Assembly (NCBI GenBank): GCA_964558645.1
Contig: CAZLEV010000012.1
Location: forward strand, 32,001-96,000
Length of the DNA: 64,000 nucleotides
Reading direction: 5' to 3'
DNA from: an uncultured archaeon
GTDB taxonomy: Archaea > Asgardarchaeota > Thorarchaeia > Thorarchaeales > Thorarchaeaceae
How positions within the stretch are numbered: the stretch's first letter is position 1; every line of letters starts with the position of its first letter. Both the position numbers and the translations under genes were made by a program. This document shows positions 11,789-21,179 of this stretch, one piece after another. Under the pieces are notes generated by a model. The model had not been told where the DNA came from, ran no database searches, and was given only the letters and a program-made list of their open reading frames with translations.

Positions 11789-12151
11789 ATGGTGTCCATA
11801 TTCATAATCGACGATGAAGCGATTCTTCACAGATTGTATAAGGACGTGTTTGCAATCAAGGGACACCATGTTGTAGCTGATGCTTTTGATGGCGAAGAAG
11901 CGATCAGGACCTATGAGAATCTTGAGCCAAGACCCGACGTAATCATCCTGGACCATAGAATGCCAAACAAGGATGGTCTCGAAGCAATGTCTGAGATTCT
12001 AAGTATAGATCCCGATGCTCGGATAGTCTTCATCAGCGCAGATGCAAATGTCAGAGATCAAGCACTCAGAGGCGGGGCTGTGAGTTTTGGGCTGAAACCG
12101 GTCACAATCAGACATATGTTGGACTTGGTTGAAGGCGCCGCTGGCGACTGA
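11789..12151 (+). CDS. Stand-alone response regulator receiver (CheY-like)
   Basis: IIDDE, ILDHRMP, SA and KP motifs intact. Confidence 0.92.
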   Translation: MVSIFIIDDEAILHRLYKDVFAIKGHHVVADAFDGEEAIRTYENLEPRPDVIILDHRMPNKDGLEAMSEILSIDPDARIVFISADANVRDQALRGGAVSFGLKPVTIRHMLDLVEGAAGD

Positions 12152-12572
12152 ATCTTCCATTGAATCCTCGATTTCGAGGGAGGGATCTGCTATCCTCGGC
12201 CAAGATAGAGCTAAGACTGTGGTCATAGCGGGAGAGATACCGTTTCTTAGGTCCCTTCTTAAGATTGCAATAGAAGACGAAGCATTTCAGGTGGTAGGAG
12301 AAGCTTCATCGAGCGATGAGTTACTAACCAAATGCAGAAACCTCGAGCCCGCAATCGTGATTCTGGACTTGGAAATCAATGAGGAGGAAGGCCTTCGTCT
12401 CATAGAATCGATTCTGGACATCAATCCATCTACTACTGTCATAGCACTATCAGAACCGGGACGGGGTCTGGGAGAGAGTGCATTTGCAGCAGGCGCACGG
12501 GGGATACTACAGAAACCGTTCACCACATTCGATCTGGTAGATATCCTTCGAAAAGTCGCACCTCTGAAATAG
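12129..12572 (+). CDS. Atypical stand-alone receiver domain
   Basis: VVGEAS, VILDLE, QKPF present; acidic DD pocket replaced by GE; start uncertain. Confidence 0.8.
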   Translation: MKAPLATESSIESSISREGSAILGQDRAKTVVIAGEIPFLRSLLKIAIEDEAFQVVGEASSSDELLTKCRNLEPAIVILDLEINEEEGLRLIESILDINPSTTVIALSEPGRGLGESAFAAGARGILQKPFTTFDLVDILRKVAPLK

Positions 12573-12720
12573 CACCAGCAACGTAGCATATAACCTACAA
12601 GGAATGCGAAGAGATATCCTAGAATCCTTTTTTTGGCCACATGTCTTCAGCCAGCGTCAGAGGACTAGTGCAGATACTACGCGAGGATTCAGATCAGCAG
12701 AAATGGATGACTGACCAAGA

Positions 12721-14304
12721 GTGACAACAAATCCAGTAATCCCGGAATTCATCATGTACAACACCGGACTCACGAGAGATGAAACCAAGTACTTACGTGA
12801 GTCAATCAAAGCACAGGCTAGTAGCGGGAAGGATAGATTCAGACTCTTCACGGATGTACTGATCAATTTCATTGAAAACGAAGACTGGGAGGAAGCCTCA
12901 TCTGATATGCTGGCTATATGCGGTAAGGCCGCCTATCTGCGAGGAAGATATGATCTCAATGAGGTCCTCTCCAATAGCTGCCAAAACCTTGCATGTCGAG
13001 GCTATGCAGCTGCTTCATTCTGTACCCAGAGTCTTGACCCCCGATGGCTTAACAACCTTCGAAACTACGTCAACCACGCATGGCAATCTAAGAGGTATGT
13101 GGTCTTCGCTGAACTGGTCGGCAAGCTGTCGGAGGTATTGATGAACCTCGGTTATGCAGACCAAGCCAGGACCATTGCAGAGGATGGCATTGAACGTGTC
13201 ACTGAATCCACCAAAGCGGATGAGAATCTTCGTTCCAAAGTTCAGGCAGCTCTACTTGAAACAAGACTGATACTTGCTCATCTCGCTGGCCTGGCAAAGA
13301 AGAGAGATGAGGCAATTCTTCGACTCAACTCCGCAGAGGAAACAGCAAAACTCCTTGATCACATCCTCGCGTTAACGGACATAGCATACTACCGAGCAAA
13401 TGTGTTGACATATAGCCATGAATACGAGAAGTCCCTCAGCTATCTCAGGTCATGCATCGGAAAATACGAGCGGATGGGAGTATTGCAGGGAGTTGCCAAT
13501 GCAAGAAACCTAAGAGGCATCATATATCTGAATCTTGGTCAATTGCAGGATGCAAGAGACCAGTTTGAGGAGCTTCTACTAGTTCAGCAGCAGCTTAACA
13601 ATCAGATTGGCCTGGCTAAGACCCTGATTAACGTCGGAGAGGTTGACAAGGCGCTTGGACAGCTCGAGCAGATGGAAAGCTACAACCAACGAGCTTTGGA
13701 GATCAGTCAAGAAGCCGAGTATATGCGAGGAATGGCCATTGCAAAAACAAATCTGGGCGATGTAGCACTTCGAAAGGGAGAATTCAGCAAGGCAATAGGT
13801 CTCTATAAGGAGGTCATGAATATTGCCGATAGGGCAGGTCTACTCGCAATACACATGGCCGTGCTATTTCAGCTAGGCGACACATACCATCTACAATGCA
13901 ACATGAATCAGGCAATGCATGCATATTCCAAGGCAAGGAAGGTCGCTGAGGAGATATTATATCCTCTCGCACAGTATCACGCTGATGTCAGTGAACTTAT
14001 CTCTACTCTCAGTACAGACACAGCACCTTCCTCAGAACTCATTGAGAAGATAAGGAAGAGTCTTCCAGACCGCAAGATATGGGATGAGGCCGGTGATTCA
14101 ACTCCAATGATAGAGGTACGAAGAAAAGTGTTTGATGACAGTTCGATTGATAGCGACTTGTGCATCTTCTTTGATCCGGAGAAGAACTACGAGTGTAGAG
14201 TCGAACGGACTGCTCTCGAAAAGGAGTGTTTCGGGAACCTTTACTGGATGGGCGGGCTATGTCCCCACTTCAATGAGTTCCTTGATACGCTCAAGTCCCT
14301 GTGA
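12721..14304 (+). CDS. Tetratricopeptide repeat protein with C-terminal Cys4 cluster
   Basis: MalT/LGN-type TPRs (ANARNLRGIIYLNLG, AKTLINVGEV, AIAKTNLGDV); four Cys near the C-terminus. Confidence 0.85.
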   Translation: MTTNPVIPEFIMYNTGLTRDETKYLRESIKAQASSGKDRFRLFTDVLINFIENEDWEEASSDMLAICGKAAYLRGRYDLNEVLSNSCQNLACRGYAAASFCTQSLDPRWLNNLRNYVNHAWQSKRYVVFAELVGKLSEVLMNLGYADQARTIAEDGIERVTESTKADENLRSKVQAALLETRLILAHLAGLAKKRDEAILRLNSAEETAKLLDHILALTDIAYYRANVLTYSHEYEKSLSYLRSCIGKYERMGVLQGVANARNLRGIIYLNLGQLQDARDQFEELLLVQQQLNNQIGLAKTLINVGEVDKALGQLEQMESYNQRALEISQEAEYMRGMAIAKTNLGDVALRKGEFSKAIGLYKEVMNIADRAGLLAIHMAVLFQLGDTYHLQCNMNQAMHAYSKARKVAEEILYPLAQYHADVSELISTLSTDTAPSSELIEKIRKSLPDRKIWDEAGDSTPMIEVRRKVFDDSSIDSDLCIFFDPEKNYECRVERTALEKECFGNLYWMGGLCPHFNEFLDTLKSL

Positions 14305-14430
14305 ATGCAGTGGTCAACTAAGCAATGGTATGAAGCATAGCTTCGTTCTTAAGGGGGATATGCAACCGTTTCACAGCACGAATACCCCCTGGCCCAGGAG
14401 GCTCAAGTGTGGTTGAAGAGGAATGCAGCC

Positions 14431-14835
14431 ATGAACGACGAAGCCAAAGAGAAGACAATCCTAATAGTTGATGACGAGAAGGTAACTGTCAAGCTGGCAA
14501 AGACTCTTTTTGAACGTCATGGATTCAATGTTCTCACTGCTTATGACGGCAGTGAAGCACTGAGAGTAGCTGAATCCGGCCGACCGGACCTCATTCTACT
14601 TGATGTGATGCTCCCAGAACTCGACGGGTTTGAGGTCTGTCGGAGACTTCGGTCTCAGACTACCTTTGAAAAGACTCCAATCCTTATGTTTACTGCACGA
14701 GGGCTGATGGAAGACAGAGAGAAAGGAAAGGAGCTCGGCGCTGATGAATACATAGTCAAGCCGTTCCAGGGCAGCGAACTGGTTGAGATTATCAAGAAAC
14801 ATCTGGCAACACCCCACGAGTCACCCAAGAATTGA
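14431..14835 (+). CDS. Stand-alone response regulator receiver
   Basis: ILIVDDE, PDLILLDVMLPELDG, TA, KPF. Likely start ATG 14431 (ORF track 14407). Confidence 0.93.
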   Translation: MNDEAKEKTILIVDDEKVTVKLAKTLFERHGFNVLTAYDGSEALRVAESGRPDLILLDVMLPELDGFEVCRRLRSQTTFEKTPILMFTARGLMEDREKGKELGADEYIVKPFQGSELVEIIKKHLATPHESPKN

Positions 14836-18735: not shown

Positions 18736-19458
18736 ATGATTTCAGAGAAAGACCAAGTCTGGAGCATTGAGGTCAAGCACTTGGCAGTCATTGAGACTCT
18801 TATCGCATGGTTTGCTCTTTCTCTAACAGGAGCACTTGCTCCAGGTCCCCTATCTGCTGCAGTTGTTATGCAGGCTAACCGACACGGCAGGCTGCATGGG
18901 ATCTTGCCTATGGTTGGCCATGCAATCGTAGAGATCGGTATTGTGGCTGCAATTGTTCTCGGAGTACAGGCACTGACCCTCACGCCCATGGCAATCTCCT
19001 TCATACTCGGATTTGGAGGGGCAGTTATTGTAGTCTTCGGGATGATTGCTCTCAGAAACTATCGCATAACTGACCAGACGAAGAAGCTCGACAGTCCTTC
19101 AGAGATACCAGCGAGCACGGCGCTAGAGGCCACTGCACAGGGCGCAGCAGTGAGTGTTCTGAGTCCCTACTTCCTTCTCTGGTGGTTCGCAGTTGGCTTA
19201 TCATCAGTCACCATGCTTGTTGCCGAGCTTCAGATGGGTGTCGGCACGGTGCTGCTAGCCGGTATCCTCATCTACTTGACACACGTATCCACAGACTTCT
19301 TATTCGGAGCGTTCTTGACAGTGAGTACCGAGAAGGCCACAAAGAAGGCTAGGATCGGAGGCATCAACTGGATCACCTTGATCATTGGCGTCTTTCAGTT
19401 CGTCTTAGGGGGTTGGTTTATGCTCCAGGCTCTACAGATTTGGCTCGGAGCAGGGTGA
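18736..19458 (+). CDS. LysE family exporter
   Basis: LTGALAPGPL, GHAIVE, SPYFLLWW. Confidence 0.85.
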   Translation: MISEKDQVWSIEVKHLAVIETLIAWFALSLTGALAPGPLSAAVVMQANRHGRLHGILPMVGHAIVEIGIVAAIVLGVQALTLTPMAISFILGFGGAVIVVFGMIALRNYRITDQTKKLDSPSEIPASTALEATAQGAAVSVLSPYFLLWWFAVGLSSVTMLVAELQMGVGTVLLAGILIYLTHVSTDFLFGAFLTVSTEKATKKARIGGINWITLIIGVFQFVLGGWFMLQALQIWLGAG

Positions 19459-19704
19459 TCTCCCTATATTCCACGCAAATCACGAAGAAGGATTCCAACG
19501 GTTAATAACTCGGGTCTCTTCATTTCACAAGAGAGTCGTTCCAATCGTCCTGATGAATCGCTGCGCTTGCCCAAATTCTTCACCTCACTGTCGTATTCCG
19601 TGAGAAATTGCTCAATCACCAATAATACTGATTAAGTTCAGCTCAAGAATGAGAGAATCCTACACATGAACACTAAAGTAGGACTCTTTCGTCCGCTCTT
19701 CATC

Positions 19705-20484
19705 ATGAAGACCATTACCCTGCATAGTTACAAGGGCGGAACAGGAAGGACGACGCTATGTGCAAACATCGCGGCGACTCTCGCCCAGAAAGGGCACAGT
19801 GTTGTGGTATTGGACATGGACTGCTGGTCCCCAACCCTTCATACCATATTCAGAGTAGAATCGCCCTGTAGCTACATTCACCAGTACCTCTCGGGAGAAG
19901 TCGGGCATAAGGAACTACTCATCGATTTAACAACAGATCTGGGAGTTAAGGGTCGGCTCAGCATCGGTGTCGCTGATTCAAGCATCGATGTCATAAGGAG
20001 CAATCTTACGCAAGACCGAAAGTGGCACAAACAGTCCCTTTCGAGAATTTTGAAACTAAAGGACACACTCCGCAATGAGGGTTTCGAGTACGTTCTCTTA
20101 GATGCATCGTCAGGGGTCCATCCTGCCACCGTGAATACAATTGTAGCCTCAGACTTTGTTCTCGTGCTCTGTAAGGTTGACAATTTCGATATGGACGGAA
20201 CGCTTCAACTCCGAGATGTCATCTACGACCGCTTAGACAAGGGAACTGCATATCTCTTCAATAAGGTTCCAGCAGCGATGCTAGATAGTAACATGAAGAA
20301 AGACGTGACGGAAACAGCACTGAATACCTTCGGGTCTGATGCGGTTATTCTTGGATATCTAGAATACTATCCGGAAGTACCAATGGCCATGGGCGTGGAG
20401 ATTCACGCCCTTACAAGCCCAGATACTGAATTTGCGTCTGAACTAAGGATGATCGTGAACCAACTCCAGTCATCTATCGAATAA
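19705..20484 (+). CDS. MinD/ParA-family ATPase
   Basis: HSYKGGTGRTT deviant Walker A, LDMD, YVLLDAS, FNKVP. Likely start 19705 (ORF track 19666). Confidence 0.88.
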   Translation: MKTITLHSYKGGTGRTTLCANIAATLAQKGHSVVVLDMDCWSPTLHTIFRVESPCSYIHQYLSGEVGHKELLIDLTTDLGVKGRLSIGVADSSIDVIRSNLTQDRKWHKQSLSRILKLKDTLRNEGFEYVLLDASSGVHPATVNTIVASDFVLVLCKVDNFDMDGTLQLRDVIYDRLDKGTAYLFNKVPAAMLDSNMKKDVTETALNTFGSDAVILGYLEYYPEVPMAMGVEIHALTSPDTEFASELRMIVNQLQSSIE

Positions 20485-20508
20485 GCTGCAGATAGGAGGT
20501 AATAAGTC

Positions 20509-21120
20509 ATGATTCACTCGGTCTATGTCTTAACTGAAGGTGGTGTCTTACTCTACAAGAGAGTCTATAGCGACGAAATGCCTAATCCCTTTATTGTGAG
20601 TAGTTTTGTTTCTGCAATCTCGAGCTTCAGCCAACAAGCTATGGGTGACAATCTGAAACGCATTGAAATCGACGGAAGTTGCATGCTCCTCTTCGAACAA
20701 AACCCCATCAAGGTACTAGTCTTGACAGATGAGAGCACCGACGCCGGATCCAATCTCTTGGAAGAGATTGCAGTGAACTTCATCAGTAGGTACTCGAAGG
20801 CAATCTCCAGCGGGAATCACAACTCAGATTCCTTCAACGATTTCGATGCTGTTCTAGAAGAACTGATTTCTGAGATGACCAATGCATGGGACTCGAGTCG
20901 CCCTACTCACTCGCTCGACGGACTGAGCTTTCTTGAACTTGAGCCACCTATCCAGAAGATGGCTCAGTATGTTCTCCGAAGGGATGAAGTCACTGCGCAG
21001 GAGGCTGCTGAAGAACTCGAGATCAAACTTGATGAGGCTGAACAGCAGCTTGAACACCTAGTTGACCTTGGTATGATTGGCTGGAAGAGAGGGGAACAAG
21101 AGAGGATGTACTACTCCTAA
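20509..21120 (+). CDS. Longin-like domain fused to a C-terminal winged HTH
   Basis: MIHSVYVLTEGGVLLY..SSFVSAISSF..F..F pattern of Asgard longins; C-terminal EVTAQEAAEEL..LEHLVDLGMI; GGAGGT RBS. Confidence 0.72.
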   Translation: MIHSVYVLTEGGVLLYKRVYSDEMPNPFIVSSFVSAISSFSQQAMGDNLKRIEIDGSCMLLFEQNPIKVLVLTDESTDAGSNLLEEIAVNFISRYSKAISSGNHNSDSFNDFDAVLEELISEMTNAWDSSRPTHSLDGLSFLELEPPIQKMAQYVLRRDEVTAQEAAEELEIKLDEAEQQLEHLVDLGMIGWKRGEQERMYYS

Positions 21121-21179
21121 TCCATCTGTTGATGAGCAGGTCGAAGGACTAATCTAGGGGAGTAGATGAACTGAGTAAT

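Follow-up and report, generated by a model that had tools for sequence, protein, structure and literature searches.

Longin domains of Asgard archaea are commonly interpreted as precursors of the proteins that regulate GTPases in eukaryotes. What such a domain does when the neighbouring gene encodes a MinD/ParA-like ATPase is the question raised by a two-gene unit in a 64,000-nucleotide stretch of DNA (hereafter the window) from an uncultured archaeon of the Thorarchaeaceae. The partners of Asgard longins are mostly unknown, and operons seldom pair them (PMC10933270). A sequence-only reading of the locus had proposed a spatial-positioning or signalling module in which a longin adaptor is wired to a SIMIBI ATPase in place of a Ras-like GTPase. 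The two-gene layout that it described, with a short gap and a ribosome-binding site, was confirmed from the ORFs and the sequence (Table 1).

Table 1. Features of the ATPase-partner locus, in window coordinates.
Feature	Position	Strand	Basis or remark
ParA/MinD-type (SIMIBI) ATPase, 259 aa, Arg-variant subclade	19705..20484	+	ORF, profiles, fold, tree
Deviant Walker A, KGGTGRTT	19732..19755	+	signature Lys10 present; Arg instead of Lys at the catalytic position, 15
ATPase segments of predicted partner interface: 105-120 (RKW helix), 140-147, 172-178	20017..20238	+	model only
GGAGGT ribosome-binding site in 24-nt intergenic gap	20495..20500	+	8 nt ahead of partner ATG
Longin-wHTH partner, 203 aa	20509..21120	+	ORF, profiles, fold comparison
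Longin domain, residues 1-125; outside confident ATPase contacts	20509..20883	+	fold, Pfam, model
LD docking motif (predicted), residues 134-142, HSLDGLSFL; family PLDxxxLLxLP	20908..20934	+	alignment and complex model
Winged helix, residues 146-203, net charge -6, recognition helix without RAVESxYL	20944..21117	+	fold, alignment
Insertion between lysE and pcp, approximate extent	19540..21140	.	site empty in G074, G073, G075, G077

An alternative in-frame ATG for the ATPase lies at 19666; the Thorarchaeia homologues begin at the MK of 19705. The AF2 model of the ATPase (pLDDT 95.8) found its best PDB matches in MinD, FleN, Soj and FlhG (TM 0.75-0.80), which bears out its assignment as MinD/ParA-like, and the AAA_31 and CbiA profiles were matched above cut-off. 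Within a Walker A laid out as K10-GGTG-R15-TT, Lys10 is present and conserved, as are D37/D39 of the DxD sensor, the Walker B Asp D133 and N186, the Asn of a degenerate NKxD. The Lys of GK[ST] is absent; Arg15 (codon AGG, 19747-19749) stands in its place, which is a recognised variant. The best NCBIfam match was the KGGVGR-variant model NF047398, which shares an Arg at this position, at 72.7 bits and under its cut-off of 90; because the Lys-type paralogue described below scores 71.4 bits, this match reflects kinship with the whole family rather than the Arg. The SIMIBI fold, signature Lys, DxD sensor, Walker B Asp and a dedicated adjacent partner are shared with MinD-MinE, FlhG/FleN-FleQ, ParA/Soj-ParB and McdA-McdB. 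Unlike the MinD/ParA systems, the window ATPase carries Arg15, has no MinE, and scored 56-57 bits against cut-offs of 180-202 (56.5 against 201.75 for MinD proper, TIGR01969; 56.7 against 180 for ParA/Soj proper, NF041546); the second MinD model, TIGR01968, gave 43.7 against 212.9. It also lacks a basic DNA-binding tail (residues 186-259 have a net charge of -7) and an evident extra C-terminal membrane helix, and no ParB gene was found beside the ATPase among the window ORFs or in the neighbourhoods of the Thorarchaeia pairs. Both proteins are acidic, with pI values of 5.5 for the ATPase and 4.4 for the partner.

A PDB sequence search with the partner returned no match, and its domains were assigned by fold. 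The top rows of a VIA-align comparison for residues 1-125 were the longins of Sec22, CPLANE, VAMP7 and TRAPP (Z 13.2-13.4; rmsd 2.5-2.9 Å across 115-123 residues), which outranked the roadblock protein MglB (Z 13.4 versus 11.2). The domain has the longin superfamily topology, with a five-strand sheet, alpha1 and two C-terminal helices, and 12 of the 18 partner orthologues matched Pfam Fuz_longin_1 at E values up to 0.1 (best 2.7e-6). Residues 137-203 form a winged helix (wHTH) that matches TFE-alpha, MecI and TrmBL2 (Z 9.4-10.1). The order of domains in the sequence-only reading, an N-terminal longin followed by a wHTH, is therefore correct. The TRAPP, Mon1-Ccz1 and NPRL2/3 platforms resemble the partner in their longin fold and in having a longin followed by a winged helix, and the latter order also occurs in an NPRL2-like Thorarchaeota family (Liu et al., bioRxiv 10.1101/2020.10.19.343400). 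Unlike all of these, the window partner consists of one longin and one wHTH and its linked NTPase is of the SIMIBI class; a further difference from the GTPase platforms is that the confident modelled contacts lie outside the longin.

The ATPase is carried by 17 of 87 Thorarchaeia genomes, in 19 copies, and a longin-wHTH gene lies directly behind it in all 19; two genera are without it (0/28 and 0/17 genomes). Among 400 Asgard genomes, a full-length partner was found in three further families, some of its carriers labelled Hodarchaeales, and in none of the 135 genomes of the largest family. At 29 of these other Asgard loci the partner again sits directly behind a related ATPase, and about seven additional copies stand alone. 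The pairing, whose conservation the sequence-only reading had made a test of its proposal, thus covers at least five families and ATPases down to 22-31% identity, in counts drawn from related genomes rather than independent samples. Sequence divergence is faster in the partner (30-40% identity) than in the ATPase (40-60%).

Beyond the Asgard sequences, the nearest ATPases belong to Bathyarchaeia. All 74 Bathyarchaeia-type loci have, just upstream of the ATPase, a gene that matches only partner residues ~106-203 and has no longin; its 120-160-aa products appear from their sequence to have an elongated N-terminal helix, and 64 of 151 Bathyarchaeia carry this wHTH module. Since these loci keep the ATPase and the wHTH module without the longin, the longin is an exchangeable add-on. 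In other Asgard families the same C-terminal module sits under an N-terminus that we read as coiled-coil-like, CxxC or DENN-like (Pfam gave no match), and in some Bathyarchaeia it is fused to TackOD1, a response-regulator output domain. The constant element, shared by every ATPase-linked partner regardless of which N-terminus it bears, consists of PLDxxxLLxLP and the wHTH. Longin-wHTH paralogues that stand alone without an ATPase neighbour have no LD motif (8-13 bits versus 92); this family is represented by G000:C5:38286-38915 and L156-L160.

The survey turned up several further arrangements. A typical Bathyarchaeia cluster (L056:1876-3768 and most of L030-L103) consists of a 62-aa gene, an Sso10a-family wHTH, the LD-wHTH partner and the ATPase, often with a MobA-like nucleotidyltransferase; two records with bacterial titles (L055, Acidiferrales; L087, Chloroflexia) hold a cluster of this type and are probably mis-binned or mislabelled. 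Bathyarchaeial proteins of ~350 aa (L182:5001-6780; P0125, P0141, P0162) combine TackOD1, an Mrr-like nuclease-fold middle and LD-wHTH, and at one locus examined such a gene is directly upstream of the ATPase. At L163:2464-4763, L164 and L169:2910-5666, members of the ATPase family are flanked by CxxC-LD-wHTH and ~320-aa DENN-like-LD-wHTH genes without a Pfam match. In two proteins of 565 and 902 aa (L173:1-1696 in G143; L174:2961-5669 in G149), an ATPase that falls within the longin-wHTH-linked clade is joined to a Roc/Ras GTPase domain; neither has a partner gene next to it. A wHTH-ParA fusion (P0128) was not counted; it occurs on one contig and may reflect a lost stop. V4R-fused relatives were absent among the 110 longer homologues listed, and a V4R cluster that is a structural neighbour is treated as a lead only.

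The complex was modelled as an ATPase dimer with ATP, Mg and one copy of the partner, alongside three controls. The model reached an ipSAE of 0.74, compared to 0.00 for the best control, and its runs agreed in at least 92% of contacts with a partner pLDDT of at least 72. Of 80 solved pairs 58 attain the score mark, and of 110 mismatched ones 2 do, rates that hold only roughly here since our own alignments and the ligands lie outside the calibration of the tool, and the score is a measure of model confidence. An interface was thus predicted, and with the longin fold and the conserved pairing it leaves the sequence-only reading standing on each point where it had exposed itself to refutation. 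In the contacts placed with confidence, partner residues 134-159 and 203 meet the three ATPase segments of Table 1; on the partner side they comprise the LD motif and the first wHTH helix, the same motif previously singled out by gene-context analysis. No longin residue is named among the confident contacts, which is to be read as uncertainty and not as proof that contact is absent. The modelled site is close to the partner surface used by ParB and MinE. Its hydrophobic core is conserved (ATPase L112, L116, V143, N144, I173 and L177); conservation of the whole ATPase interface is not above the protein average (1.48 versus 1.61). We consider it probable that the two proteins bind through the LD motif and the wHTH. 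Such docking by a wHTH-proximal motif is predicted to leave the longin free.

The longin-bearing and longin-less forms differ in their winged helix. The wHTH carries a net charge of +6.3 in Bathyarchaeia and of +5.8 in the longin-less forms of Asgard archaea; the longin groups stand at +2.7, +1.0 and -1.7, and the window copy at -6. The RAVESxYL motif of the recognition helix is conserved in longin-less forms (Bathyarchaeia and several Asgard families) and lost in longin forms; the Bathyarchaeial wHTH is basic and highly conserved, whereas the window type is variable and acidic. We infer from these sequence trends that the gain of the longin came with a weakening or loss of DNA reading.

The Walker A of the window ATPase was read correctly at the outset, although its Arg is not unique to this protein, as the NCBIfam KGGVGR model and a hallmark of the ConB2 group discussed below attest. 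Fifteen of the 19 Thorarchaeia copies have Lys at this position, and Arg15 marks a subclade of four genomes in four genera. Arg as a family-wide trait was ruled out, given Lys in most relatives, and the Arg is therefore derived within Thorarchaeia. The three other genomes encode Arg15 with CGC, AGG and AGA, and an independent 97%-identical assembly (L200) also has it; a sequencing error is ruled out by this retention across genomes with differing codons, and a pseudogene likewise, in view of the low pN/pS of the two genes relative to the 97%-identical strain (0.22 and 0.16). The Arg-type ATPases form a clade with support of 100/100, nested on a long stem among the Lys-type Thorarchaeia copies, and their partners form a clade of their own (99/98). 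The window genome also holds a paralogous pair with the canonical Lys (contig C23). RecA K70R has no ATPase activity and ~3-fold lower ATP binding (PMC9769622). By analogy the Arg15 enzyme may bind ATP yet hydrolyse it poorly, RecA being of a different P-loop class and a family that retains Arg possibly having compensated. A literature search on KGGVGR and MinD K16R returned nothing relevant.

In the congener G074 the flanks are 87% identical on both sides and lysE and pcp lie ~150 nt apart. Because the site is empty in four relatives, the window pair is a recent insertion of ~1.6 kb. The insertion is clean, comprising two genes, with a slightly low GC content (46-48%); there is no terminal or target-site repeat at its edges and no transposase at the insertion. 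Among genomes the Arg pair occupies at least three sites, whereas the Lys-type pairs follow genus and share one common site in several genera, at which G075 has its Arg pair. Transfer of a cassette between Thorarchaeia is the simplest reading. Strain L200 has ~170 additional bases right after the lysE stop relative to window positions 19323-19459, so the left junction is still changing. Elsewhere in the window, three stand-alone receiver-domain genes surround a TPR protein (11789-14835); from 12903 onward this region is also present in the congener and is outside the insertion.

The ~20 longin-like ORFs of the window genome and its 21 small-GTPase-like ones are all unlinked to the window pair, and the Thorarchaeia pairs likewise have no linked gene for a small GTPase, a roadblock protein or another target. 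A third, more distant ATPase of an SFRGG type is encoded on contig C7 (cluster L002:6093-9134 in G000), where two larger longin-HTH genes (428 and 304 aa) precede it; this MinD-like ATPase has no RKW helix. Its wider family is present in 69 of 85 Thorarchaeia-family genomes, with longin linkage in five of six further loci checked. Near the cluster, L002:11804-12739 encodes a 311-aa protein with TackOD1 and an N-terminus that looks longin/uDENN-like by inspection.

Li, Burroughs and Aravind (bioRxiv 10.64898/2026.10.19.760177) predicted computationally a set of mainly archaeal ParA-wHTH systems and proposed that they intercept invader DNA; they note that a profilin/longin-like domain is fused to some versions and give Arg at the position of the Walker A Lys as a hallmark of their ConB2 group. 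Our final literature search returned this paper alone. The earlier statement that no characterised example was known accordingly holds for experiments, whereas the type of system was described computationally in October 2026. The window pair closely matches that description: a mainly archaeal unit of a ParA gene and a wHTH gene, with a simple form bearing a long N-terminal helix in Bathyarchaeia and, at the window locus, the elaborated form with a profilin/longin-like domain, a PriB2-type Ser ahead of Walker A, and in the window copy Arg for a Lys that most relatives retain. On this close match, membership in the ParA-wHTH (ConB2) type is likely. Two features depart from the type: the PG after the DxD sensor is PT in the window (DMDCWSPT) and PS in most relatives, and the wHTH, being acidic and having lost the conserved recognition helix, is at odds with the proposed DNA coating. 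We therefore class the pair as a variant and not a plain member. The text of the preprint names neither an Asgard lineage nor an interface; the present analysis adds the predicted docking site, the eroded DNA-reading helix of the longin forms and the finding that the window pair was inserted recently.

Our preferred reading, which we hold with roughly even confidence, is that the pair is an optional, self-contained accessory signalling switch of the archaeal ParA-wHTH type, made of an ATPase and its adaptor. On family grounds the ATPase would dimerise on ATP via Lys10, and, as the model and the gene pairing suggest, the LD motif and first wHTH helix would dock in a groove formed by its three interface segments. 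In the ancestral longin-less form the wHTH would read DNA. In the Thor- and Hodarchaeal forms a longin would have taken the place of the N-terminal coiled coil and the helix that reads DNA would have eroded, turning the partner into a protein adaptor; its free longin may oligomerise or bind a longin, roadblock or small-GTPase component, relaying the nucleotide state of the ATPase. The Arg15 copy would act as a switch that is slow or holds on to ATP, alongside the Lys-type pair encoded on another contig. The Roc/Ras GTPase-fused ATPases in two genomes and the TackOD1-fused wHTH module support a signalling switch, and the want of a linked target gene at the Thorarchaeia pairs weakens it.

The patchy presence of the pair (17/87) and its fresh insertion weaken the switch further, as they fit defence at least as well. 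Li, Burroughs and Aravind envisage an anti-virus or anti-plasmid system in which the wHTH would detect the DNA of an invader, multimers of ParA would coat this DNA and the longin would extend the resulting assembly. The preprint places ParA-wHTH in an immune group with the Arg-for-Lys hallmark, and the faster divergence of the partner, the clean two-gene insertion, the several sites of the Arg pair and the scattered occurrence in Thorarchaeia and Bathyarchaeia alike speak for it. DNA coating is nevertheless a poor fit to proteins this acidic, above all in the C-terminal part of the ATPase and in the wHTH. PADLOC returned nothing for the pair itself beyond a short Walker A match to PDC-M28B. 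Metabolic genes (enolase, phosphoglycerate mutase, NadA, sugar dehydrogenases) make up most of the neighbourhood, which is not a defence island; among 53 neighbours PADLOC gave only TPR, HEAT and single pVip and PDC-S09 matches. The Lys-type pairs, moreover, follow genus with one site kept in several genera, and the Bathyarchaeial wHTH is highly conserved rather than fast-evolving. We regard defence as a possible account, about half as probable as the switch.

FleN-FleQ-like control of transcription, with the ATPase as co-regulator or anti-activator of a DNA-binding wHTH and the longin as sensor or dimerisation domain, draws on the place of FleN among the top structural matches and on the longin-less relatives, which match TrmB and, weakly, Sta1/Lrs14 and whose loci adjoin an Sso10a-family gene in 66 of 80 cases. 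It is improbable for the window pair, given a recognition helix that is unconserved in longin forms and acidic in this copy, and the lack of a convincing shared operator-like motif upstream of the 19 Thorarchaeia copies. Spatial positioning in the manner of MinDE, McdAB or ParAB, in which a longin-held cargo is moved along nucleoid or membrane, had been one half of the original proposal. The layout of ATPase plus partner and a modelled site near the ParB/MinE surface would suit it; against it stand the missing basic nucleoid-binding tail in an acidic ATPase, the want of an evident membrane helix, scores far under the MinD/ParA cut-offs, the absence of cargo genes, the many Thorarchaeia genomes without the pair, and an Arg15 unlikely to support a fast ATPase cycle, and we find it more doubtful still. 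Least probable is the original wiring, with the longin as a GAP/GEF-like platform that binds the ATPase directly in place of a Ras-like GTPase: the longin fold is real, ParA can displace MglA beside MglB and profilin-longin-like domains associate with SIMIBI NTPases (bioRxiv 10.64898/2026.10.19.760177), and a model with one partner copy has a longin-dimer surface outside its scope, but the ATPase keeps its partner and RKW helix in 74 longin-less loci and every modelled contact falls in the LD motif and wHTH that form the constant element.

If the switch reading is extended, Asgard archaea may have turned an older module of ParA and a DNA-binding wHTH into a protein-signalling hub, in which the wHTH would be a pure docking element, the longin would link a SIMIBI switch to the small-GTPase/longin network, and the hydrolysis-poor Arg version would be a mobile Thorarchaeia cassette that tunes or overrides the Lys pair; we put this forward as a long shot. 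The locus also carries a caution: where a longin is encoded beside an NTPase gene, binding to the NTPase may run through another domain. As a small soluble pair, it offers a longin protein with a defined partner and a testable interface. Its longin and longin-less forms allow a direct test of the DNA-coating model of the preprint, and a single genome provides a natural comparison of the Lys and Arg versions.
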